Shown piece after piece: positions 1 to 20,213 of a stretch of 64,000 nucleotides of DNA; within the stretch, counting starts at the first letter, position 1; every line of letters starts with the position of its first letter. The translations under genes and the position numbers were made by a program. The DNA is from Escherichia coli (GTDB taxonomy: Bacteria; Pseudomonadota; Gammaproteobacteria; Enterobacterales; Enterobacteriaceae): the NCBI RefSeq assembly GCF_016026235.1, contig NZ_CP065613.1. One strand, given 5' to 3'. The notes beneath the pieces are model-generated. The model was not told where the DNA came from and searched no databases. It saw only the letters and a list, made by a program, of their open reading frames with translations.

Positions 1-2733
1 ATATGCCTGATGATGCGAACGTCCGACGCGACCGCGTAACTGGTGCAGCTGCGCCAGACCGAAGTGATCCGCGCGTTCAATGATAATGGTGTTGGCTGTC
101 GGGATGTCGATCCCGGTTTCGATAATGGTTGTACAAACCAGCACGTTGAAACGTTGATGATGGAAATCATTCATCACCCGTTCCAGTTCGCGCTCGCGCA
201 TCTGCCCGTGACCGATGGCGATCCGCGCTTCTGGCACCAGTTCTGCCAGCCGTTCGGCGGCTTTCTGAATGTTTTCCACATCATTGTAGAGATAATAAAC
301 CTGTCCTCCGCGCAAAATTTCACGCAGGATCGCCTCCCGGACCACCAGGCTGTCATACTCACGGACAAAGGTTTTAACTGCCAGACGACGGGCGGGCGGC
401 GTGGCGATAATCGACAGGTCACGCATTCCGCTCATTGCCATATTCAGCGTACGTGGGATCGGCGTTGCAGTAAGCGTCAGAATATCCACGTTCGCGCGCA
501 TCGCTTTAATACGCTCTTTATGACGCACCCCGAAGCGGTGTTCTTCATCGACAATCAGCAGGCCTAAATCTTTAAACTTGACGTCACTTTGCAGCAGTTT
601 GTGCGTACCGATCAGAATATCGATTTTCCCTTCCGCCACTTCCGCAAGGATTTGCGTCTGCTCTTTGGCGCTGCGGAAACGGGAGATCATTTCGATACGT
701 ACCGGCCAGTTGGCGAAACGGTCGCGGAAGTTGTCGTAATGCTGCTGCGCGAGAAGGGTGGTAGGCACCAACACCGCCACCTGCTTGTGGTTATCTACTG
801 CCAGGAAAGCGGCGCGCATCGCCACTTCTGTTTTACCAAAGCCAACATCGCCGCACACCAGACGATCCATTGCCAGCGGCTGACACATGTCGCTAAGTAC
901 CGCATTAATGGCCTGCGCCTGATCCGGCGTGGTTTCAAACGGGAAGCTGTCGCAGAACAACTGATACTGCTCACGATCGTGTTTAAACGCGAAGCCCTCT
1001 TTGGCGGCGCGTTGCGCGTAGATATCCAGCAATTCCGCCGCCACATCACGCACTTTTTCCGCCGCTTTCTGCCGCGCGCGTGACCACGCATCGCCGCCAA
1101 GTTTATGCAGCGGGGCGTTTTCTTCCGCGCCACCTGCGTAACGGCTAATCAGATGCAGTGACGACACCGGAACATACAGTTTGGCGTCGTTGGCATAGGT
1201 GAGCATCAAATACTCGCCAGTAATGCCGCCCGCTTCGAGCGTGGTCATTCCGGCATAGCGCCCGACACCGTGCTCCAGATGGACCACCGGCTGACCAATA
1301 TGCAGCTCCGCAAGGTTACGGATCAGTGTATCGGGGTTGATGGTGCGGCGAGAATCCTGACGACGGCGGGCAACACGTTCACCGAGCAGATCGCTTTCGC
1401 AGATCAGCGCCAGATTACGCACCTTATCGACAAAACCATGTTCGGCAGCGCCAATCATCAGATAACGCCCACGGTCGCTGGCTTCATCAAGACGCATAAT
1501 GCGTTGCGGAGCAATTTTAATTCGTGCGAGCAGTTCACCCAGCGCTTCACGGCGACCTTCACTTTCTACCGAGAACACCACCGGACCGTCGAAAGTCTCG
1601 AGGAACTTACGCAGCGCATCCAGCGGCGCTTTTTGTTGTGCCTGAACGGCCAGGTCTGGCAGTTTCTGGAAACCTAAATTGGCATTCGCGGCTTTTGTCG
1701 GTAAATGTTCAGTTTTTAGCTGCACCCGGGGCCAGTTTTTCAGCTCTGAGAAGAGCTCGTCCACCCGCAGCCAGAGCGATTGTGGTGGCAACAGCGGGCG
1801 CATCGGATCGACGCCGCGATTCTCAAAACGCGCCAGCGTGTCAGCCTGGAAACGTTCGGCACTGGTTTCCAGATCGCCAGTATTCACGAGCAAGGTATTG
1901 GCAGGGAAATAACTGAACAGCGGCGGCAGTGGTTCGCTGAAGAACAATGGCTGCCAGTACTCGATCCCGGCAGGTAATGTGCCTTTACTCACTTGCTGGT
2001 AAATATGTTCCGGATCGCGCTTCACTTCGAAGGTATCGCGCCACTGGCTGCGGAACAGTTCAATTGCCGCTTTATCGGTCGGAAATTCGTGCGCGGGCAG
2101 CAGATTGATCGCTTCTACTTCCTCCAGCGTGCGCTGGCTGTCGACGTCAAACACCCGCAGGCTGTCGATTTCATCATCAAAGAAATCAAGACGATAAGGC
2201 AGCTCACTCCCCATCGGGAAGAGATCCAGCAACGCGCCGCGCGTGGCGTATTCGCCGTGCTCCATCACCTGGTCAACATGGCGATAACCGGCGCTGTCCA
2301 GTTGGGTTCGTAATGCATCTCGTGACAGGCGCTGACCTTTTTTCATCACCAGCGCATGACCGTGGAGAAAACTGTGTGGGCAAACGCGCTGCATAAGCGT
2401 ATTCACCGGAACAATCAGTACGCCACGCTGCATCGTCGGTAGCTGGTAAAGGGTGGAAAGGCGCGAGGAGATAATGTCCTGATGAGGCGAAAAACTGTCG
2501 TAGGGAAGAGTTTCCCAGTCCGCCAGATTCATCACCATCTGATCGGTGAACTGGCTGATTTCATCATGCAAACGCAGAGCATTTTGCATATCTGGTGCAA
2601 TGAGTACCACCGGACCGGCGTGACGTTCGGCAATTTCCGCTACCAGCGTTGCACAGGCTGCGCCGGTTAACTCGCCCAGCAGACGCTGCTCACCCGCTTT
2701 GACGGGCAGCGTATAACGATATTGTTCAGGCAT
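1..2733 (-). CDS. mfd: transcription-repair coupling factor Mfd (partial, C-terminus beyond window start)
   Basis: Reverse complement from ATG at 2733..2731 reads [16 protein letters not shown], the Mfd N-terminus; minus-strand frame stays open to position 1; plus-strand ORFs here are short antisense fragments. Confidence 0.9.
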
Positions 2734-2860
2734 AACGGTTGTCAGATTCTCGTTAGGATATGCCTCAACATATGGGGGCATATCTCTGATAAGCAATGCT
2801 GTTCATTATCCGTAATCGACATGGTTTAGCAAATTGAATCGCCCCGGCTGGGGCGATGGT

Positions 2861-3934
2861 TTAACGAGAGTAACTGACGGCAGCGGGCAGTGAAGGCGGG
2901 GAGAACAACAGATCGCTGAATGCACGCTGTGAAAGTTTTCTTACCAGCAAGCCCGCAACAGTACAGATGAACAAACTGACAAAGGGATAAACCAGCAGGA
3001 GTGTCAGTTCGACTTGCGGCGACCAGCGTGCTGCGTTCATTTGCGCAAGCAGAGTTAAGCTGAATATTTCAACCAGAATGCGATGGGTGGTGTAGATAGC
3101 AATGGTGTTGGAGCCAATCACATTCAGCAGGCTGGTGGAGCGCATACCGAATCGTTGCTCGTATTGATAAAACAGCTTCATGATCACCACAATCGATACC
3201 AGCGACAACAGCAGCGAGATAGTAAACAACCAGGCACCGACCGCCAGAACGGTAAGCAAAGAAGCCATCAGCAGATGGCGGCGCAACGGCACCTCTTTAA
3301 CACAGGTCATTATTGTTGCGCCAAACCATGCGCCAAGGCTGTAATAAAGCAAATTGCGGATCACACTGTTCATTCCCCACCACGGCGTGGGAACGAAATT
3401 AACCGCCACACTCAGCAGTACAAACAAGGCGAATAGTGGCAGCGCCAGACGGCTAAAAATTTTACATACCACGAAATAGACAATTAACGCATACAGATAC
3501 CACAAGCTGGTGCTGGCGGTGATCATCCCGTGCAGGAACTCACCGGTGGAATCGGCATAAGCGGCATTGGAGGCATTGCTTAAATCGCGCTCAGGTGCCA
3601 GCCACTGGTTCAGCGCACTTAACGCCAGCCACTGCACCACGCCCCAAAGCGCCAGCACCCAGAAGATGTTCCAGATCCGTTTATCGAGACAATTTCCCCA
3701 CGGTACGCTGTCGATATAGCGGCGAATCAAATAGCCGGATATAAAGAAAAAAACCGGCATACGAAAGGGGGCAAGGTAAAGATTGAAATAGATCCAGCAT
3801 TTGCTCAGGACTTCCGATAACGGATGCTGAAAAGTGGTCAGATGCGGATAAAAGGTAATGACCGAGTGATAAATCACCACCAGACAAATACATAACCCTT
3901 TGATCTGGTTAATCCATAGCTCTTTTTGTTTCAT
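2861..3934 (-). CDS. ycfT: inner membrane acyltransferase-family protein YcfT
   Basis: 357-aa hydrophobic ORF, ATG confirmed at 3934..3932; position after mfd matches K-12 order. Confidence 0.85.
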   Translation of the reverse strand: MKQKELWINQIKGLCICLVVIYHSVITFYPHLTTFQHPLSEVLSKCWIYFNLYLAPFRMPVFFFISGYLIRRYIDSVPWGNCLDKRIWNIFWVLALWGVVQWLALSALNQWLAPERDLSNASNAAYADSTGEFLHGMITASTSLWYLYALIVYFVVCKIFSRLALPLFALFVLLSVAVNFVPTPWWGMNSVIRNLLYYSLGAWFGATIMTCVKEVPLRRHLLMASLLTVLAVGAWLFTISLLLSLVSIVVIMKLFYQYEQRFGMRSTSLLNVIGSNTIAIYTTHRILVEIFSLTLLAQMNAARWSPQVELTLLLVYPFVSLFICTVAGLLVRKLSQRAFSDLLFSPPSLPAAVSYSR

Positions 3935-4084
3935 CAGGACAACACGCTCTTTTTTAATTTACATGCGGTTGATCCTGCGGGTTATGACCCGAGGTGTAAT
4001 GGGTATCTGTCTGTATTGGATGATTTTTCAGATTAAGATCAGGCGGCAAGATTGATGATAAAACATGGCAATTTAGCCGATTGA

Positions 4085-7333
<3,249 letters not shown>

Positions 7334-7361
7334 AGGCAGTACATTAAAACAAGGAGCGGCA

Positions 7362-8273
7362 ATGTATTACGGGTTTGATATTGGTGGAACAAAAATTGCG
7401 CTTGGCGTGTTTGATAGCGGTCGGCAGTTGCAGTGGGAAAAGCGGGTGCCGACACCGCGTGACAGCTATGACGCATTTTTAGATGCAGTATGCGAGCTGG
7501 TAGCCGAAGCTGACCAACGTTTTGGCTGTAAAGGTTCTGTTGGCATCGGTATTCCGGGAATGCCGGAAACAGAAGATGGTACGCTGTATGCCGCCAATGT
7601 CCCCGCTGCCAGCGGTAAACCGCTGCGTGCCGACCTGAGCGCACGTCTTGATCGCGATGTACGCCTTGATAACGATGCCAACTGTTTTGCCCTTTCAGAA
7701 GCCTGGGATGATGAATTTACGCAATATCCACTGGTGATGGGGTTAATTCTCGGCACCGGCGTTGGCGGCGGGCTGATTTTCAACGGTAAACCGATTACCG
7801 GTAAAAGCTACATTACCGGCGAGTTTGGCCATATGCGTCTGCCGGTTGATGCGTTAACCATGATGGGGCTGGATTTCCCGTTACGCCGCTGCGGCTGTGG
7901 TCAAATTGGTTGTATCGAAAATTATCTATCAGGTCGGGGCTTTGCGTGGCTCTGGCAACACTATTATCATCAACCGTTGCAGGCTCCCGAAATTATTGCG
8001 CTTTATGATCAAGGCGATGAGCAGGCAAGGGCGCACGTTGAGCGTTATCTGGATTTATTAGCGGTTTGTCTGGGAAATATCCTGACCATCGTTGACTCTG
8101 ACCTGGTCGTCATTGGTGGTGGCTTATCGAATTTCCCGGCAATCACAACGCAACTGGCGGACAGGCTGCCTCGTCATCTCTTACCTGTAGCTCGTGTTCC
8201 GCGCATTGAACGCGCGCGCCACGGTGATGCGGGAGGAATGCGTGGTGCGGCCTTCCTACATCTAACCGATTAA
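7362..8273 (+). CDS. nagK: N-acetyl-D-glucosamine kinase NagK
   Basis: ATG at 7362 ([16 protein letters not shown]), 303 aa, ROK-family motifs. Confidence 0.9.
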
Positions 8274-8288
8274 ACAACAGAGGTTGCT

Positions 8289-9110
8289 ATGCTGTCGCGT
8301 CGGGGTCATCGGTTAAGTCGTTTTCGTAAAAATAAACGCCGCCTGCGCGAGCGTTTGCGTCAGCGTATTTTTTTCAGAGATAAAGTGGTGCCGGAAGCAA
8401 TGGAAAAACCAAGAGTACTCGTACTGACAGGGGCAGGAATTTCTGCGGAATCAGGTATTCGTACCTTTCGCGCCGCAGATGGCCTGTGGGAAGAACATCG
8501 GGTTGAAGATGTGGCAACGCCGGAAGGTTTCGATCGCGATCCTGAACTGGTGCAAGCGTTTTATAACGCCCGTCGTCGACAGCTGCAGCAGCCAGAAATT
8601 CAGCCTAACGCCGCGCATCTTGCGCTGGCTAAACTGCAAGACGCCCTCGGCGATCGCTTTTTGCTGGTAACGCAGAATATAGACAACCTGCATGAACGCG
8701 CAGGTAATACCAATGTCATTCATATGCATGGGGAATTGCTGAAAGTTCGTTGTTCGCAAAGTGGTCAGGTTCTCGACTGGACCGGAGACGTTACGCCAGA
8801 AGATAAATGCCATTGTTGCCAGTTCCCGGCACCCTTGCGCCCGCACGTCGTTTGGTTTGGCGAAATGCCACTCGGCATGGATGAAATTTATATGGCGTTG
8901 TCGATGGCTGATATTTTCATTGCCATTGGTACTTCCGGGCATGTTTATCCGGCGGCTGGGTTTGTTCACGAAGCGAAACTGCATGGCGCGCACACCGTGG
9001 AACTGAATCTCGAACCAAGTCAGGTCGGTAATGAATTTGCCGAGAAATATTACGGCCCGGCAAGCCAGGTGGTGCCTGAGTTTGTTGAAAAGTTGCTGAA
9101 GGGATTATAA
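8289..9110 (+). CDS. cobB: NAD-dependent protein deacylase CobB (sirtuin), long isoform; short isoform start near 8400
   Basis: 273-aa ORF with arginine-rich N-terminus and sirtuin core ([10 protein letters not shown]); internal Met at [13 protein letters not shown] corresponds to the known short isoform; 3' end appears shifted (see findings). Confidence 0.88.
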
Positions 9111-9123
9111 AGCAGGAAGCATT

Positions 9124-9152
9124 GCCTGATGCGCTACGCTTATCAGGTCTAC
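9124..9152. repeat. REP (repetitive extragenic palindrome) element
   Basis: GCCTGATGCGCTACGCTTATCAGGTCTAC matches the REP consensus pattern; lies between convergent cobB and potD. Confidence 0.7.
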
Positions 9153-9230
9153 AAGCGGACCACAATACCGACGAAAGAGCGGGATAAAACTTTACTGTCC
9201 TGACTCATTAGCCACATCCTTGCTAACTAA

Positions 9231-9260
9231 AAAACGGGCGGTAATACCACCGCCCGTTTG
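9231..9260. terminator. bidirectional rho-independent terminator between cobB and potD
   Basis: Hairpin CGGGCGGTAATACCACCGCCCG flanked by an A-run upstream and T-run downstream. Confidence 0.7.
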
Positions 9261-9265
9261 CTGAA

Positions 9266-10312
9266 TTAACGTCCTGCTTTCAGCTTCTGATAATACTCTT
9301 CATAAATGCTACTGGCTGCGCCAACGTCATTTTGCCATTCACCATTTTTAATGGTTTCAGCATCCGGGTAGAGCGTTTTATCGTTCGCCACTTCTGGGCT
9401 TAACAGCTTACGCGCCGCAAGGTTTGGCGTTGGATAACCGATAGTTTCGGCAACCTGTTTTGCCACATCCGGGCGCAGCAGGAAGTTGATCAATTTCAGC
9501 GCGCCTTCTTTGTTTTTGGCATTTGCCGGGATCGCCAGGCTGTCCATCCAGAATATGCCGCCTTCTTTCGGCCACACCACGTCAATAGGCGTACCCGCCT
9601 GGCGTGCAACGAAAGCAGAACCGTTCCAGATCATGCCGAGGTTAACTTCGCCTTCCATGTACGGGTTAGCCGGGTTATCGGAGTTAAACGCTGCGACGTT
9701 TGGCATCAGTTTTTTCAGCTCGTTATATGCAGCTTCAATCTCTTTCGGATCGGTGGTGTTACCGGAGTAGCCCAGCTTACGCAGCGCCATCTGGAACACT
9801 TCACGGGCATCGTCGGTCAACAGCAGGCTGCCTTTGTACTCTGGCTTCCACAGATCGGCCCAGCTGGTGACAGATTTTGGATCCACCGCATCACCGTTAA
9901 CACCAATCGCCGTCGCACCCCAGATATACGGAATGGAGTAATCGTTATTCGGGTCAAACGGCTTATTGAGCATGTCTGGATCGAGATTGCTGAAGTTCGT
10001 TAACTTCGACTTGTCGATCTTCTGGATCATCCCTTCTTTACGCATTTTATCGACGTAATAGGTTGAAGGAACCACCAGGTCATAGGCACCGTCTTTGTAC
10101 GTTTTCAGCTTGGCATACATGGTTTCGTTCGACTCGTAAGTCGAATAGATAACCTTAATACCGGTTTCTTTGGTGAACTGTTCAAGCAGTCCTGGCGGCA
10201 CGTACTCGGTCCAGTTGTAGAAATACAGCGTGTTGTTGTCATCGGCGTGAGCGGCGCTCATGCCCAGTGCCAGAGCACCCGCCGCGAGCAGGTGGCGTGA
10301 CCATTTTTTCAT
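9266..10312 (-). CDS. potD: spermidine/putrescine ABC transporter periplasmic binding protein PotD
   Basis: 348-aa ORF with signal peptide MKKWSRHLLAAGALALGMSAAHA; ATG confirmed at 10312. Confidence 0.93.
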   Translation of the reverse strand: MKKWSRHLLAAGALALGMSAAHADDNNTLYFYNWTEYVPPGLLEQFTKETGIKVIYSTYESNETMYAKLKTYKDGAYDLVVPSTYYVDKMRKEGMIQKIDKSKLTNFSNLDPDMLNKPFDPNNDYSIPYIWGATAIGVNGDAVDPKSVTSWADLWKPEYKGSLLLTDDAREVFQMALRKLGYSGNTTDPKEIEAAYNELKKLMPNVAAFNSDNPANPYMEGEVNLGMIWNGSAFVARQAGTPIDVVWPKEGGIFWMDSLAIPANAKNKEGALKLINFLLRPDVAKQVAETIGYPTPNLAARKLLSPEVANDKTLYPDAETIKNGEWQNDVGAASSIYEEYYQKLKAGR

Positions 10313-11103
10313 TTAACGTCCCCTGTGTTACCTTTCGTTTTATCACGAGCAATAAGCTGGCTGGCAATAACCATCACCAGCGACAGCACCAGTAATATGG
10401 TTGCCAGCGCGTTAACTTCCGGCGATACGCCGACTTTGACCATCGAATAAATTTTTAACGGCAGAATTTCATAACTCGGCCCGGTGACGAACGAAGAAAC
10501 CACCACATCGTCCATCGACAGGGTAAAGCTTAACACCCAGCCCGCCGCCACCGCTGGCATTGCCAGTGGCAGAATGATTTTTCGCAGAATGGTAAATTCG
10601 CTGGCACCGAGATCTTTCGCCGCTTCCAGCATTCGCACGTCAAAACCTTTCAGGCGCGAATACACCGTCACCACCACAAATGGCAGGCAGAAGGTGATAT
10701 GCGAGAACAGCAGCGACCAGAAGCCAAGCTGAATACCCAGCAGCATAAACAGCACCAGCAGCGAAATTGCCATCACGATATCTGGTGACATCATTACCAC
10801 AAACAGCATTCCGCTAACGAACGGCTTACCACGAAAGCGATAACGGTACAGTGCAACTGCCGTCAGTGAACCGATAAGAGTAGCAAACGTCGCCGAAAAC
10901 ACCGCCATTGTTAGTGAATGCTGCGCTGCCTGTAACAGGCTGTCGTTGTTCATCAGCAAGCTATACCATTTAGTGGTAAAACCCTGCCAGTTGATGCCAA
11001 AGCGCGAGCTGTTAAAGGAGTTCACAATCAAAATAATGATTGGGATATACAGGTACGCGTAGATAGCGGTCATAAAACCGCCGCGAAGCAGTCGACCGAT
11101 CAT
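10309..11103 (-). CDS. potC: spermidine/putrescine ABC transporter permease PotC
   Basis: 264-aa membrane ORF, 4-nt overlap with potD and potB. Confidence 0.92.
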   Translation of the reverse strand: MIGRLLRGGFMTAIYAYLYIPIIILIVNSFNSSRFGINWQGFTTKWYSLLMNNDSLLQAAQHSLTMAVFSATFATLIGSLTAVALYRYRFRGKPFVSGMLFVVMMSPDIVMAISLLVLFMLLGIQLGFWSLLFSHITFCLPFVVVTVYSRLKGFDVRMLEAAKDLGASEFTILRKIILPLAMPAVAAGWVLSFTLSMDDVVVSSFVTGPSYEILPLKIYSMVKVGVSPEVNALATILLVLSLVMVIASQLIARDKTKGNTGDVK

Positions 11104-11957
11104 TCGAGTTCCACCTTTTTATTCAGCAGACGAGAAGCGCGCCAGTAAACCAGCAACATCAGGCCCATTACGATAGTCAGCGTAATGCTGGTGGCTGCAC
11201 CAAACGGCCAGTCACGAATATTGAGGAACTGTACCTTGATGACGTTACCGATCAGCAGGTTTTTCGCACCGCCCATCAGGTCGGACACATAGAACAGGCC
11301 CATCGCTGGCAGCATCACCAGCAGACATCCGGCAATAATCCCCGGCATCGTCAGTGGAATAATGATACGGATAAAAGTCTGTAACTTGCTGGCACCGAGA
11401 TCGCGCGCCGCCTCAAGCAACGGCTTATCCAGTTTTTCGATACTGGAGTACAGCGGCATCACCATAAACGGCAGCAGAATGTAAACCAGACCGATAATCA
11501 CCGCACTGGGCGTGAACATGATACGGATTGGTGTGTCGATAACGCCCAGCCAGAGCAAAAACTCGTTGAGATAGCCTTTGGTGCTGAGGAAAATTTTCAG
11601 CCCGTAGATGCGAATCAGTGAGTTGGTCCAGAAGGGAACAATCAGCAGAAACAGCAGCAGCGGACGCACCTTGTGTGGCAGCTTCGCCAGAAACCAGGCA
11701 AACGGGTAGCCCAGCACCAGGCAGGCGAGGGTGGCGATCAGCGCCATATTCAGCGAGTGCAATAGCACTTCAAAATAGAGCGGATCGAGCAGACGTGTGT
11801 AGTTATCCAGCGTAAAGACCATTTTGACGAAACTGGCGTCGTCGCGGGTCAAAAAGCTGGTGCCAATGATCATCAGGTTGGGCAGAAAGACAAACAACAC
11901 AAGCCAACCGACAATAGTGACAATCACTACATTCTGGAACTTACTTGTGTTCTTCAT
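11100..11957 (-). CDS. potB: spermidine/putrescine ABC transporter permease PotB (longest ORF; annotated start may be the GTG at 11927)
   Basis: Membrane ORF in pot operon; ATG at 11957 overlaps the potA 3' end; the K-12 annotation as I recall it starts about 10 codons further in. Confidence 0.85.
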
Positions 11958-13077
11958 CAGCCAGTACGACCTCCCAGCTTTCTACCCAATTAATGGCCAT
12001 TTTTTGGTCGAGAGAGTGGTCAAAGTCAGGATCGTCTTCATTGAAGAATTCGCTGACCATCACCATCTTGCCATTTTCCAGTTCAACAACCGACTCCAGC
12101 GTCATGCCTTTGTAGTTACGCTCACGAACGTAACCAATCAGCCCTTCAGCGTGGTTGTCGTCGTTAATCTCTTCAACACGTAAGTCTTCCGGGCGCAGCA
12201 GAACATGCAGTTTTTGCCCCGGTTCTACGGCGAAGTTAACGTAGATATTACATTCGCGGCCTTCAACGTTGGCGCGTACGCGCTGCTCGTCGAGACGTTC
12301 GATAACAGTGGCGTTAAACATATTGATTTCGCCAATGAACCCGGCAACAAACAGGTTTTTCGGCTCTTCGTAGATTTCACGCGGCGTGCCGTCTTGCTCA
12401 ATGCGACCATCGCGCATCACCACAATCCTGTCTGACATGGTGAGTGCTTCTTCCTGATCGTGAGTCACGAAGACGAATGTAATGCCAAGCTTACGCTGTA
12501 ACGCTTTCAGCTCGTTCTGCATTTGCTTACGCAGTTTGTAATCCAGCGCTGAGAGCGACTCATCCAGCAACAACAGACGAGGCTTGTTAACCACCGCGCG
12601 AGCAATGGCGACGCGTTGCTGTTGACCACCAGAGAGCTGATGCGGTTTACGTTGAGCGAAGGTTTCCAGCTGCACCATCCGCAGGGCTTCCATCACGCGG
12701 GGCGTAATTTCAGCAGCGGGGGTTTTTTGCATGCGCAACCCAAAGGCCACATTTTCGAACACGGTCATGTGGGGGAAAAGTGCGTAGCTTTGGAAAACAG
12801 TGTTCACATAGCGGTTTTCCGCCGGAACGTGGGTGATGTCCTCGTTATCCAGCATGATGCGTCCGGAATCAACAGTTTCCAGACCTGCAATCAGGCGAAG
12901 AACGGTTGTTTTACCGCAGCCAGAAGGGCCAAGCAGCGTGAGGAACTCGCCATTGTTGATAGTCAGATCCAACTGGGGAATGACCTCTTTACCATCAAAG
13001 CATTTGCGAATTCCCGCCAATTGCACCAGCGGTGAAAGCGAACTCGGTTGTTTATTCAATTTTTTACTCTGTCCCAT
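11941..13077 (-). CDS. potA: spermidine/putrescine ABC transporter ATPase PotA
   Basis: 378 aa; Walker [10 protein letters not shown], signature [11 protein letters not shown] at 13077. Confidence 0.93.
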
Positions 13078-13326
13078 GTAAACGCAACGGATGGCTTACC
13101 GATGCGGGGTTTGTGGTTAACCACCTTGGTGACTCTTAATGAGGGCGGTAATTCTACGGCAAACCGCTTGAATCGCCAATCTTTGTTGTGAATTACTGGC
13201 TTAGCTTTATATTCATTAAGGTAATGCTGATAAATATTCCCGCTTGCAGGGGTAAAAGTGACCTGACGCAATATTTGTCTTTTCTTGCTTCTTAATAATG
13301 TTGTCACAAAAAGTGAGGGTGACTAC

Positions 13327-14556
13327 ATGGATAAACTACTTGAGCGATTTTTGAACTACGTGTCTCTGGATACCCAATCAAAAGCAGGGGTGAGACAGGT
13401 TCCCAGCACGGAAGGCCAATGGAAGTTATTGCATCTGCTGAAAGAGCAGCTCGAAGAGATGGGGCTTATCAATGTGACCTTAAGTGAGAAGGGCACTTTG
13501 ATGGCGACGTTACCGGCTAACGTCCCTGGCGATATCCCGGCGATTGGCTTTATTTCTCATGTGGATACCTCACCGGATTGCAGCGGCAAAAATGTGAATC
13601 CGCAAATTGTTGAAAACTATCGCGGTGGCGATATTGCGCTGGGTATCGGCGATGAAGTTTTATCACCGGTTATGTTCCCGGTGCTGCATCAGCTACTGGG
13701 TCAGACGCTGATTACTACCGATGGTAAAACCTTGTTAGGTGCCGATGACAAAGCCGGTATTGCAGAAATCATGACCGCGCTGGCGGTATTGCAACAGAAA
13801 AACATTCCGCATGGTGATATTCGCGTCGCCTTTACCCCGGATGAAGAAGTGGGCAAAGGGGCGAAACATTTTGATGTTGACGCCTTCGATGCCCGCTGGG
13901 CTTACACTGTTGATGGTGGTGGTGTAGGCGAACTGGAGTTTGAAAACTTCAACGCCGCGTCGGTCAATATCAAAATTGTCGGTAACAATGTTCACCCGGG
14001 TACGGCGAAAGGAGTGATGGTAAATGCGCTGTCGCTGGCGGCACGTATTCATGCGGAAGTTCCGGCGGATGAAAGCCCGGAAATGACAGAAGGCTATGAA
14101 GGTTTCTATCACCTGGCGAGCATGAAAGGCACCGTTGAACGGGCCGATATGCACTACATCATCCGTGATTTCGACCGTAAACAGTTTGAAGCGCGTAAAC
14201 GTAAAATGATGGAGATCGCCAAAAAAGTGGGCAAAGGGTTACATCCTGATTGCTACATTGAATTGGTGATTGAAGACAGTTACTACAATATGCGCGAGAA
14301 AGTGGTTGAGCATCCGCATATTCTCGATATCGCCCAGCAGGCGATGCGTGACTGCGATATTGAACCGGAACTGAAACCGATCCGCGGTGGTACCGACGGC
14401 GCGCAGTTGTCGTTTATGGGATTACCGTGCCCGAACCTGTTCACTGGCGGTTACAACTATCATGGTAAGCATGAGTTTGTGACTCTGGAAGGTATGGAAA
14501 AAGCGGTGCAGGTGATCGTCCGTATTGCCGAGTTAACGGCGCAACGGAAGTCGTGA
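13327..14556 (+). CDS. pepT: peptidase T (tripeptide aminopeptidase)
   Basis: Track ORF trimmed to ATG at 13327 ([19 protein letters not shown]); M20-family metallopeptidase. Confidence 0.9.
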
Positions 14557-14559
14557 TTG

Positions 14560-14700
14560 CCCGATGCGTATGTGGACTGCCAATTACCGGGATGAAACCG
14601 TTATATTGACACTGGTCCACATACTTATCGTGCCTACAGGCGTTCAGTGCATGTAGGCACGATAAGGCGCAATCAGCGCCGCATCCGGCTTAAATCCAAA
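14560..14700. repeat. REP-like palindromic repeat cluster between pepT and roxA
   Basis: Inverted repeats GTATGTGGAC/GTCCACATAC and GCCTACAGGCG...GCGCCGCATCCGGC in a convergent intergenic region. Confidence 0.5.
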
Positions 14701-14701
14701 C

Positions 14702-15823
14702 TTACCCTTCGAAGAACCAATACCCGCTATTGACCAGCGCCGCGAGCATCGCGAGGAATGACGGATCTTCCAGCGCATCGCCAAAATTCTCCGCAGTCAG
14801 CGCAATGTTGCTGGCGAGTGCATCCAGTGCCGGACGGTGCGGGGAATCGATCTTCTCACCATTGGCATACACGTCGTCGCCAATGCGCAATACGCGCAGA
14901 CCACCCAGGCGCACCAGCACATCACCTTGTTTCAGCGCATCGTAGATCTCATCTGGCTGATAAGGCGGCTCTGGCGGCGCGATATCCAGTTCATGACGTG
15001 ACTGGGATATAAACTCGCCAAACCATTGCTTAAAGTGTTCCGGCTGGTTGATCAATTCGAGCATCATCTCACGCAGTTTATCCATCTCTTGCGGCAGAAC
15101 ATCCGCAGGATGAGCGCGAGGTGGAACATCAGGATCGCTGTAGTAGTTGCCGCCCAGTTCACGTTGCAGCACATAATCGGCAAATCCACTAATCAGTTCC
15201 CGCGTATTTGGCGCGCGAAAACCCACGGAATAGTTCATCGCATTTTCCAGCGCGTAGCCTTCATGCGGGAATCCTGGCGGAATATAAAGAATATCACCAG
15301 GCTCCAGCTCTTCATCGATGATGGCTTCGAACGGATCGACCTGTAACAGATCCGGATGTGGGCAGTGCTGTTTCATTTGCAGCTTTTCGCCCACTCGCCA
15401 GCGACGACGTCCGGTACCCTGAATGATAAACACGTCGTACTGATCGAGATGCGGGCCGACGCCGCCGCCAGGTACAGAAAAAGAGATCATCAGATCATCA
15501 ATACGCCAGTCCGGTAGTTCACGGAACGGTCGCATCAGCGCGGCGGTCGGCTCATGCCAGTGGTTCACTGCTTGCACTAACAATGACCAGTTAGTTTCAC
15601 CGAGATGATCGTAGCTTTCGAACGGACCGTGGCTGACCTGCCATTTTCCATCCTGGTGACTGACCAGTCGACTGTCGACTTCGCTTTCCATCGCCAGACC
15701 CGCCAACTCGTCTGGAGAGATCGGGTCAATAAAATTATTAAAGCCGCGTTTTAACACCACCGGGCGTTTCTGCCAGTGACGTTCAAGAAAATCGGGCCAG
15801 TTAAGAGTGAGTTGGTATTCCAT
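14702..15823 (-). CDS. roxA: ribosomal protein uL16 arginine hydroxylase RoxA (YcfD), JmjC/cupin 2-oxoglutarate oxygenase
   Basis: ATG at 15823 (MEYQLTLNWPDFLERHW), 373 aa. Confidence 0.88.
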   Translation of the reverse strand: MEYQLTLNWPDFLERHWQKRPVVLKRGFNNFIDPISPDELAGLAMESEVDSRLVSHQDGKWQVSHGPFESYDHLGETNWSLLVQAVNHWHEPTAALMRPFRELPDWRIDDLMISFSVPGGGVGPHLDQYDVFIIQGTGRRRWRVGEKLQMKQHCPHPDLLQVDPFEAIIDEELEPGDILYIPPGFPHEGYALENAMNYSVGFRAPNTRELISGFADYVLQRELGGNYYSDPDVPPRAHPADVLPQEMDKLREMMLELINQPEHFKQWFGEFISQSRHELDIAPPEPPYQPDEIYDALKQGDVLVRLGGLRVLRIGDDVYANGEKIDSPHRPALDALASNIALTAENFGDALEDPSFLAMLAALVNSGYWFFEG

Positions 15824-15898
15824 GTTAAGCATCCACAGGCTGGTATCTGCAACCGATTATAACGGATGCTTAACGTAATGCGTGAAGTATGGACATAT

Positions 15899-17359
15899 TT
15901 ATTCATCTTTCGGCGTAGAATGCTGGCGACCAAAAATCACCTCCATCCGCGCACCGCCAAGCATGCTCTCTCCGGCGACGATTTTACCCTCATATTGCTC
16001 GGTGATTTCGCGGGCTACCGCCAGCCCTACACCTTGCCCAGGGCGTAAAGTATCAACCCGTTGACCACGGTCGAAAATGACCTCTCGCTTGCTTAATGGA
16101 ATACCGGGTCCATCATCCTCGACCACAATATAGAGATGCTCGTCGGTTTGCCTTGCAGAAATTTCGACAAACTCGAGGCAATATTTACAGGCATTATCCA
16201 GCACATTGCCCATCACCTCGACAAAATCGTTCTGCTCACCGACAAAGCTGATCTCTGGCGAAATATCGAGAGAGATATTGACCCCTTTGCGTTGATACAC
16301 TTTGTTCAGCGCCGAGGTGAGATTGTCCAGCAGTGGGGCGACCGGATGCAGCTCGCGGCTGAGCAATGTCCCGCCGCGCATACTGGCACGATGCAGGTAG
16401 TAGCCAATTTGCTGTGAAATGCGGCTGATTTGCTCCAGCATTACCGGTTCAGCATCACTGACGCTCATCTTTTCACTACGCAGAGAACGCAGCGTACTTT
16501 GCAGCACCGCCAGTGGCGTTTTCAGACTATGGGTCAGGTCGGTGAGCGTTGTACGATATTTGTCGTAACGTTCGCGTTCACTTTTTAACAATCGGTTCAG
16601 GTTTCGTACCAGACTGGTCAGTTCTCGCGTTGTGGCTGGATTGAGCAATTCGCGGTTATGTTCTTCCAGTTCGCGGACTTCTTTTGCCAGAGCTTCGATG
16701 GGGCGTAAACTCCACCAGGCGGCGACCCACAGCAGCGGGATCACTAACAGCAGATTGGCTGAGAGCACATAGATAAACCAGCTCCAGACCATATAGGAAC
16801 TTTTTAGCTCCACCGGAATGGTATCCACCACCACAATGGTTAACTTTGGCATCCGCGATGTTGCCGGGTAGACGTTTACCGCCACCGAGTGGGTCATCTC
16901 CGCGTCGTCATCATCTTCCCGCACTTCCTGCAACTGTTGCTGTATCGAATGATCTCCACTCAGCAAGAGGCTGGTATCGTTAACATCCGCTTCAATTTCA
17001 TGAAAACCATTCGATTTCAGCCAGTCAGGCTGGATCATCTTCATCAGCCAGGGCACGTCACGTTGCGCCCATAAAAGCTGCCCGTTCTCATCATAAATTA
17101 GCGTCATGGTGGGGCTTTGCTTGTCGATATTTTCGGGTAACTCGACATGCAACTTATTGTTTTCCCACTTCGCAAGGGTATAGAACAGATTGCTCTCGCC
17201 ACGTAACAGCCGAAACGTAGTTTTATCGAAACTGACGCTATAACCGATCAGCGCGACCATTCCGTAGGCAAGCGAAAGCACCAGTACTACCGCTGCCGTT
17301 GCCAACAGAAAACGTACCCGCAGCGAGAGCGGGAAAAAAAGACGCAGTAATTTTTTCAT
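15899..17359 (-). CDS. phoQ: sensor histidine kinase PhoQ
   Basis: 486 aa, [33 protein letters not shown], acidic periplasmic patch EDDDDAE, HisKA/HATPase motifs; ATGA overlap with phoP. Confidence 0.95.
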
Positions 17360-18030
17360 CAGCGCAATTCGAACAGATAGCCCTGGCCGCGAACGGTGGT
17401 AATCACTTCTTGGGGATATTGTGCCTGAATTTTTTTGCGCAGACGTCCCATCAGTACATCAATGGTATGGCTTTCCCGCAGCTCCGCATCCGGATAGAGT
17501 TGGAGCATTAACGAATCTTTGCTGACCACTTTGCCATTATTGCGTATCAACGTTTCCATAATGGTGTATTCGAACGCGGTCAGTTTGATCACTTCGTCAT
17601 TAATAGATAATTCACGGCGAGAGAGATCAACCTGAAACGGGGGTAGCGAAATGACCTGTGAAGCCAGACCGCTATTACGCCGCATTAATGCCTGCATTCG
17701 CGCCATCACCTCTTCAATATGAAATGGTTTAGTCACGTAATCATCAGCACCAGCACTTAATACTTCGACTTTGTCCTGCCAGCTTTCACGGGCGGTTAAT
17801 ACCAGAATCGGCAGTGAAACATCATTGCTACGCCAGCGGCGAATCAGTGACAGACCGTCCTCGTCTGGCAATCCGAGATCGACAATCGCAATATCCGGTA
17901 AATGTTCATTGAGATAATAATCGGCTTCTTTGGCATCTTCTGCATCATCGACCTGATGACCAGCATCCTGAATCTGAACTTTAAGGTGGTGACGTAACAA
18001 CGCATTGTCTTCAACAACCAGTACGCGCAT
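17359..18030 (-). CDS. phoP: response regulator PhoP
   Basis: 223 aa [40 protein letters not shown]; OmpR-family receiver plus winged helix. Confidence 0.95.
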
Positions 18031-18090
18031 TTTTATTTCTCCCTGTCTTAATTATTAAAATAGTGTAACGCGATTATGTGGTTATGGGGG

Positions 18091-18107
18091 TAAACATTAA
18101 ATAAACC
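18091..18107 (-). promoter_or_regulatory. PhoP box (direct repeat GGTTTA-N5-TGTTTA) in phoPQ promoter
   Basis: Reverse complement of 18091..18107 reads GGTTTATTTAATGTTTA, about 60-75 nt upstream of the phoP start; matches the known autoregulated phoP promoter architecture. Confidence 0.75.
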
Positions 18108-18197
18108 AGCGGGGAGGGGAGGTAAAGTGAAAAAATAAAAAGCGGATAATCTTAATAAGCAGGCCGGACAGCATCGCCATCCGGCACTGATACGAGT

Positions 18198-19571
<1,374 letters not shown>

Positions 19572-20213
19572 TCACAACTCCGGGGTTAAATGAGCAAGAA
19601 TTTGTTTTGCCTGAGTGGTCAGGCGATTACGAGAAAACATCAATTGCAGACGTCCGCCGCCGACCTGGTGCCAGAGCACGGCGGCGCGAATGCCTGCCAG
19701 CAGGGTTGCGCGAACTTTCGCCTGCACTTGTGGGCTTTGCAGTACAGCAGGGGAACCGGTGACCTGAATGCGCGGGCCAAGCGGGCTAATCACATCAACA
19801 TAGATAGCAGCCATCGCGCTCATCAGCGTTTCGGACTGTAAATCGAAGTGTTCGAGCTGGCGTTGCAGGCCGTTGATCCGGTTGCCCAGAGTGTCGAGCG
19901 CACCTTTCGCTGAGGAGAGTTTGCGCTCAAGCACCATCAGACTGAGTGTGTAGCGGGTTAATTCGGCGTTTAAGCCCTGGCGACTGCTGGCATTGAGCAC
20001 GCCGAGCAGGGTTTCCAGCCCGACGCGCAGGTTGGCTTCGCTACCGCCAAAAACCGCCAGCGTCGAGCTGGGGTTCATATCAATAATACTGTTGAGTGAG
20101 ACGTGTAGCGCATCGGCATCACAATGCCCCTGGTGAGCGAGTTGTTGCACCAGGCGTGCCGACTGACAAATACCGGCCAGGGCGAGGGTGATGTCATAGT
20201 AATTCTTTGCCAC
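19572..20213 (-). CDS. hflD: high-frequency-lysogenization protein HflD
   Basis: Track ORF begins at a GTG (20219); K-12-like start [10 protein letters not shown] is a GTG at 20213; 213 aa. Confidence 0.85.

Follow-up and report, generated by a model that had tools for sequence, protein, structure and literature searches.

Two very probably independent and old polymorphisms in the cobB–potD interval of Escherichia coli: the cobB stop codon and a ycfZ-ymfA deletion

In E. coli K-12 MG1655, the genes are ordered cobB, ycfZ, ymfA and potD, and cobB and potD are separated by about 1.42 kb. The ycfZ and ymfA genes are inner-membrane genes of unknown function, which carry a TPM domain and DUF3592, respectively, and both are variable genes of the pangenome (PMC8788219, PMC10304320). 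The 3′-end of the MG1655 cobB reads GGATTA-AAAGCGGGAAGCATTGCCTGA, and its product is 279 aa long, ending in KGLKAGSIA. According to the summary in PMC12306157, a REP element located no more than 15 nt from a stop codon has been reported to stall terminating ribosomes and to lower expression (Liang, Rudd and Deutscher 2015).

The present analysis concerns the same interval in a stretch of 64,000 nucleotides of an E. coli genome (contig NZ_CP065613.1 of the assembly GCF_016026235.1; hereafter, the window). Here, cobB ends differently from that of K-12, and ycfZ and ymfA are missing. Both variants are already known: they are present in annotated RefSeq genomes, and the ycfZ-ymfA deletion is a catalogued presence/absence variant of the pangenome. 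The features of the interval are as follows.

8289..9110, plus strand: cobB, an ORF of 273 aa encoding a Sir2-family NAD+-dependent protein deacylase
9108..9110, plus strand: TAA stop of cobB, regarded as ancestral (alignment with K-12, PI7, E2348/69 and others; the outgroup stops at the same codon)
9109..9129, plus strand: untranslated stretch, read as KAGSIA and TGA in K-12-type alleles (sequence and comparison with K-12)
9124..9152, plus strand: REP element GCCTGATGCGCTACGCTTATCAGGtCTAC, also given as GCCTGATGCGCTACGCTTATCAGGTCTAC (pattern match; hairpin in the RNA fold)
9160..9165, no strand assigned: junction of the 1,287-bp ycfZ-ymfA deletion (the left homology ends at 9160 and the right one starts at 9165)
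9165..9208, minus strand: ymfA stub, with its start codon at 9208–9206 and about 15 codons (about 14.7; 44 nt) (translations; alignment with the ymfA of PI7 and K-12)
9209..9231, minus strand: former ymfA leader and potD-ymfA spacer, kept (colinear with 5727–5750 of the K-12 locus L001)
9232..9259, minus strand: intrinsic terminator of potD (terminator scan and RNA fold)
9266..10312, minus strand: potD, encoding the spermidine/putrescine-binding periplasmic protein and convergent with cobB (ORF; annotation of identical loci)

The cobB ORF of the window translates to a C-terminus of ...KLLKGL, followed by TAA at 9108–9110. Its product is identical to WP_000952736.1, which is annotated in FDAARGOS_943, O157:H7 SS52, PI7, 2017-02-2CC, O145:H28 and GF3-3; the two CobB forms have the RefSeq accessions WP_000952736.1 and WP_000952737.1. 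The SIR2 catalytic domain is complete: the Pfam profile PF02146 matches residues 48–221 over its positions 1–180 of 180 (E=4.3e-54). The CobB of the window and that of K-12 match over residues 1–273, and residues 39–273 of the former are therefore the same as in the solved structures of E. coli CobB (chains 6RXJ and 1S5P). In the alignments of archaeal Sir2 structures with CobB, the match does not extend beyond residue 273, and the crystal construct of 1S5P includes nothing after residue 274; thus, the six-residue tail of K-12 lies outside the conserved fold. As judged from the sequence, the CobB of the window is most likely a normal full-length enzyme.

The one-nucleotide difference between the cobB ends of the window and K-12 is real: T9108 is present in the window and absent from MG1655, and the alignment identifies it as the base that the K-12-type alleles lack. 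It had been proposed in the first-pass annotation that the removal of the T at about 9108 yields KAGSIA-TGA, and the sequence bears this out, since 9109–9129 then reads AAA GCA GGA AGC ATT GCC TGA. The allele frequencies were determined in 5,426 complete E. coli genomes by means of exact-word probes for the 3′-end of cobB, with the following results.

T-bearing 37-mer, window type: 1,852 genomes of 5,426
T-bearing 37-mer, E2348/69 (B2) type: 1,097 genomes of 5,426
T-bearing 37-mer, strain 536 type: 31 genomes of 5,426
K-12-type 36-mer, without the T: 1,702 genomes of 5,426 (about 31%)
none of the four probes matched: 744 genomes of 5,426

The T is carried by at least 2,980 of the 5,426 genomes (at least 55%), among them strains of phylogroup B2 (for example, E2348/69). 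The 744 genomes are unclassified owing to nearby SNPs, and the split between the 273-aa and 279-aa forms is therefore given only as bounds, but the conclusion on the direction of the change is independent of them. A few hits were to plasmid-labelled records (4 of the 1,852 hits for the window-type 37-mer, and one more for the E2348/69-type 37-mer), which could be pieces of the chromosome carried by large plasmids, or else replicons with a wrong label.

The direction of the change can be seen from the outgroup scan, in which one genome per species was used and which provided 80 cobB loci. Escherichia was represented by E. albertii, E. whittamii, sp. E1V33, sp. MOD1-EC7003 and two species representatives labelled as E. 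coli, with E. fergusonii not among them; the other genera included Citrobacter, Salmonella enterica (subsp. arizonae and diarizonae), Enterobacter, Kosakonia, Cedecea and Trabulsiella. CobB was found to be 272–276 aa long in all of the 80 species representatives and exactly 273 aa in 69, and it ends in KGL in 75 and in L-L-K-G-L in 71. The other Escherichia species read ...GGnTTA TAA... at the end of cobB, as in the window, and among the sequences read, the 279-aa form was found only in K-12-type E. coli. Since the lengths and the KGL ends are so uniform among these species, the stop of the window is regarded as ancestral. On this comparison, the window carries the ancestral and majority cobB stop, and the K-12 allele is a derived deletion of one nucleotide. 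Having lost one T of the ancestral TAA, the K-12-type alleles are translated for six more codons (KAGSIA), across the former intergenic DNA, up to a TGA, which is located at 9127–9129 inside the REP element (GCC-TGA-TGC).

The first-pass annotation had taken the opposite direction, namely, that the strain or the assembly of the window carries a 1-nt insertion that shifts the frame of cobB and removes six residues. This view has in its favor that the window does contain one T more than the K-12 reference, with a product that is six residues shorter, but it is almost certainly wrong. The same T, followed by the stop after ...KGL, recurs in the independent complete genomes counted above, and because thousands of independent assemblies share it, an assembly error is excluded. 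The identical protein is annotated in many RefSeq genomes, and the Sir2 fold ends at residue 273. The frame and the stop of the window cobB match those of every outgroup examined, and all the reference CobB sequences examined end in KGL, except that of the K-12-type E. coli allele. The C-terminus is accordingly full-length relative to the 80 species-representative orthologues, not that of a truncated pseudogene, and the outgroup comparison refutes the insertion and truncation reading.

The cobB–potD intergenic gap of the window extends from 9111 to 9265, with the potD stop at 9266, and measures 155 bp, in agreement with the earlier estimate of about 155 bp. The REP element begins 13 nt past the cobB stop. 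A REP was defined here as an imperfect palindrome of about 30–35 nt with the pattern GCC(G/T)GATGCG...CTTATC(A/C)GGCCTAC, which folds into a hairpin, and the gapped search for this pattern gave one match, with one variant base, against 0 expected. A hairpin of 8 + 2 pairs is found in both the minimum-energy and the centroid folds. The fold energy of the 61-nt REP stretch is no better than those of shuffled sequences (z = −0.24), so that the fold by itself is weak evidence for a REP. E. coli genomes contain the canonical REP 30-mer at a median of 21 near-exact places each (range 7–46, undercounted in 1,551 records), and the hits listed fall in unannotated DNA. The element thus has both the palindromic hairpin pattern and the many dispersed intergenic copies of a REP. 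The long REP consensus, with 3 mismatches allowed, had no match in the window, because the REP at 9124–9152 is of the short-loop type. Its tail carries a rare T at 9148 and reads GGTCTAC, where GGCCTAC is usual; of the loci read, only the window and FDAARGOS_943 have this T. An identity of at least 99% to positions 8900–9500 of the window was found in only 11 of 5,425 genomes.

Downstream of the REP element, a second hairpin is formed at 9232–9259. On the minus strand, it consists of an 11–12-bp GC-rich stem (12 pairs in the terminator scan, 7 of them GC) followed by TTTTTT, its fold energy is −25.4 kcal/mol (z = −6.9), and it has the makeup of an intrinsic terminator for potD. On the plus strand, the stem is followed only by TTTG, which is a weak U tract. 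Since the T6 tail exists on the minus strand only, this hairpin is assigned to potD; whether it terminates in both directions is doubtful, and for cobB it would be weak at best. The earlier description of a REP and a shared terminator downstream of cobB therefore holds for the presence of both hairpins, but the word "shared" is generous. Farther along the potDCBA genes, the alignments of FDAARGOS_943, O157:H7 SS52, E2348/69, strain 317 and O145:H28 all stop at position 11125, slightly within the 3′-end of potB, and these five genomes carry a phage integrase and an excisionase after potC. The region 11100–11130 is a prophage attachment site, which is empty in the window. In the whole window, Rfam gave a single match at the gathering threshold, the sRNA C0299, at 43515–43593 on the plus strand (111.9 bits).

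The absence of ycfZ and ymfA between cobB and potD was corroborated by tblastn, which found neither gene in the window. MG1655 has both genes there, and its cobB is thus not directly beside potD. The genomes bearing ycfZ-ymfA all align to the window up to 9155–9160 and resume at 9165, and the four bases CACA between the two homologies (9161–9164) match neither parent cleanly. Compared with PI7 (locus L004), a segment of 1,291 bp (2210–3500) is replaced by 4 nt, which is a net loss of 1,287 bp; correspondingly, the relatives with 99.0% identity span 21,287 bp, as against 20,000 bp in the window. In the undeleted strains, a BIME, which is a pair of REPs, precedes ycfZ. Of this BIME, the first REP and the beginning of the linker remain in the window. 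The rest of the linker and the second REP have been lost, together with all of ycfZ (with the TPM domain) and with ymfA (with DUF3592) from about codon 16 on. The left breakpoint is located 8–12 nt beyond the REP. The statement in the first-pass annotation that REPs often mark indel junctions is consistent with a REP adjoining the junction, but it holds only loosely because of this offset.

The left breakpoint is flanked by GGACGCAAT, just past the REP, and the right one by AGACCGAT, inside ymfA. The imperfect similarity of these two sequences fits illegitimate recombination or slippage, and the CACA filler leaves the crossover and the mechanism ambiguous within about 10 nt. We infer a single illegitimate deletion of 1,287 bp between these short imperfect repeats, which would have left the start region of ymfA as a 19-codon stub beside the potD terminator. 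The leftover ORF of the stub runs from 9208 to 9149 on the minus strand and reads MSQDSKVLSRSFVGIVVRL-stop, with its TAG within the tail of the REP. The stub is colinear with the 5′-end of the intact ymfA beside potD and is flanked by the same spacer and terminator. Its N-terminus reads MSQDSKVLSRSFVGI in the window and MSQDSKVLSRAFLGI in PI7, and the two agree at 13 of the first 15 residues. YmfA exists in deeply divergent allele classes: the YmfA proteins of PI7 and K-12 are only 75% identical (locus L004 3083–3544 and locus L001 5265–5726, respectively), although the neighboring YcfZ, PotD and CobB are 97–100% identical between the two strains. The stub of the window belongs to the PI7 class.

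The deletion is widespread in E. coli. Positions 8900–9500 of the window are covered to at least 80% in one piece in 576 of the 5,426 genomes, and in nearly all of the others the coverage is split around the insert. The pan-genome distribution, to which the first-pass annotation had pointed, was obtained with a 36-mer specific to the junction, which occurs in 555 of the 5,426 genomes, always in a single copy, and these include O157:H7, O145:H28 and the commensal strain HS. The same junction, including CACA, is also present in 2017-02-2CC, the flanks of which are 97% identical, and in Escherichia sp. E1V33 (95%). Two subtypes are distinguished by the left flank: GCGGACC is found in the window, O157:H7 and E1V33, and GGGGACC in 129 genomes, 80 of which are exactly HS-like.

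The position of T9108 and the deletion junction are only about 55 bp apart, but all four combinations of the two variants exist.

273-aa CobB, ycfZ-ymfA present: PI7, E2348/69, strain 317
273-aa CobB, ycfZ-ymfA deleted: window, O157:H7, O145:H28, GF3-3
279-aa CobB, ycfZ-ymfA present: K-12, ECZP248
279-aa CobB, ycfZ-ymfA deleted: HS, BS-01

The two variants are therefore independent. HS has K-12-linked SNPs up to six bases from the junction. The possibility that the T difference and the deletion arose as one linked event is rejected by PI7 and E2348/69, which have the 273-aa form with the genes present, and by HS and BS-01, which have the 279-aa form with the genes deleted. We consider it very probable that the two variants are independent, old and naturally segregating polymorphisms of E. 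coli, and that neither is a lesion peculiar to the strain of the window. Neither would be expected to be of much weight for fitness.

For the order of events, the species-representative loci are informative. Within 5 kb of cobB, neither ycfZ nor ymfA was found outside Escherichia, and in 46 of the 66 non-Escherichia loci with both genes placed, the cobB–potD gap is shorter than 250 bp, usually 36–120 bp. Since ycfZ-ymfA are located between cobB and potD only in Escherichia, and cobB and potD are usually direct neighbors elsewhere, ycfZ-ymfA were probably gained in an ancestor of Escherichia and later lost, an order that is deduced from their absence near cobB in the other genera. The usual adjacency of cobB and potD outside Escherichia, together with the short arrangement in another Escherichia species, E1V33, would also suit the idea that the window retains an ancestral empty site, into which ycfZ-ymfA never entered and from which nothing was deleted. 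This idea is nevertheless highly improbable, because the ymfA stub is present: 44 coding nucleotides of ymfA, start codon included, and the leader before them are colinear with the ymfA of both PI7 and K-12. The window has also kept part of the BIME found ahead of ycfZ in undeleted strains, namely, its first REP and the beginning of its linker. If the site had been empty, the insertion would have needed to be fused in frame to a pre-existing ORF of 15 codons, and no ymfA stub was found in the cobB–potD spacers of the other genera.

A secondary deletion of ycfZ-ymfA might instead have happened several times, with a mechanism directed by the REP or BIME producing the same junction independently. 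The junction occurs on both cobB alleles, only 55 bp away, and within flanks that are 95–98% identical to the window; the left breakpoint is near the REP, and the locus has undergone other independent deletions, which would all be compatible with recurrence. We nonetheless judge recurrence to be improbable on account of the shared CACA filler bases: all of the 555 junction-bearing genomes have the same 28–36-nt junction word including CACA, which fits descent and recombination better, and the other deletions at the locus end at quite different points. A single deletion is thus the preferred reading. Descent and homologous recombination would then have carried the deletion allele into several phylogroups and also beyond E. 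coli, into at least one other species of the genus. The simplest history is that ycfZ-ymfA were gained, that one secondary deletion followed, and that the deleted allele was then moved by recombination.

Other decay alleles of this locus were observed. In JSMCR1 (locus L009, 4349–4784), a deletion of about 1.9 kb extends from inside ycfZ to inside potD, so that ymfA is gone and annotated pseudogene fragments of ycfZ and potD remain, with about 10 nt of overlap at the junction. E. coli E69 (locus L012, 5820–6410) is without ycfZ only, and its ymfA directly follows the BIME. In Escherichia sp. MOD1-EC7003 (locus L014, 5820–6410), two internal deletions have removed parts of ycfZ and ymfA. Together with the deletion found in the window, these independent alleles indicate that ycfZ and ymfA are dispensable.

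With respect to expression, the loss of the T in K-12 may be more than a neutral change of the tail, because the stop was moved into the REP hairpin and the alleles may consequently differ in the CobB level; we give this only a slim chance of being correct. If it were true, measurements of sirtuin-dependent deacylation in K-12 would be unrepresentative of the approximately 55–69% of E. coli that have the ancestral allele. Likewise, the loss of the second REP of the BIME together with ycfZ-ymfA could alter the stability of the 3′-end of the cobB mRNA. The functional effect of both variants is most likely nothing notable.

The two variants are ordinary variation and of little weight, and the useful result is the correction of the direction of the cobB change. 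The laboratory reference K-12 has the derived cobB allele, and the 273-aa form has been preserved in the window, in O157:H7, in B2 strains and in the rest of the Enterobacteriaceae examined. If K-12 is treated as the standard, the ancestral cobB would be wrongly flagged as a frameshift by pipelines or readers. The occurrence of one junction across phylogroups and in another Escherichia species offers an example of recombination spreading a deletion allele.

The comparison with the known systems can be made at four levels. Among E. coli strains, O157:H7, O145:H28 and GF3-3 resemble the window in having the 273-aa CobB, the 155-bp spacer, the deletion junction and the ymfA stub. GF3-3, from a guinea fowl, is the closest of the complete E. 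coli genomes in the collection searched over positions 1–20000 of the window (99.1%), and FDAARGOS_943 shows 99.98% identity over the 5.2 kb that extend as far as its prophage. O157:H7, O145:H28 and FDAARGOS_943 differ from the window in having a prophage at the 3′-end of potB (position 11125). K-12 MG1655 (b1120–b1123) shares the flanking genes lolCDE, nagK, cobB and potDCBA, which are 97–98% identical to those of the window, as well as the first REP and the potD terminator. Unlike the window, it lacks T9108, has the 279-aa CobB and keeps the second REP, ycfZ and ymfA (1,287 bp more). Relative to the genes with a REP near the stop codon described in PMC12306157, the cobB stop of the window, 13 nt upstream of the REP stem, lies within the reported distance. 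The cobB stop of K-12 lies inside the REP, a geometry that does not appear in that summary. In Salmonella, Citrobacter, Enterobacter and other Enterobacteriaceae, CobB is 272–276 aa long and ends in KGL in nearly all cases, as in the window. In most of these bacteria, cobB converges directly on potD, often with REP-like palindromes in between. Their spacers, usually 36–120 bp long and without a remnant of ymfA, appear to represent a site that was never occupied, whereas that of the window was probably emptied secondarily.
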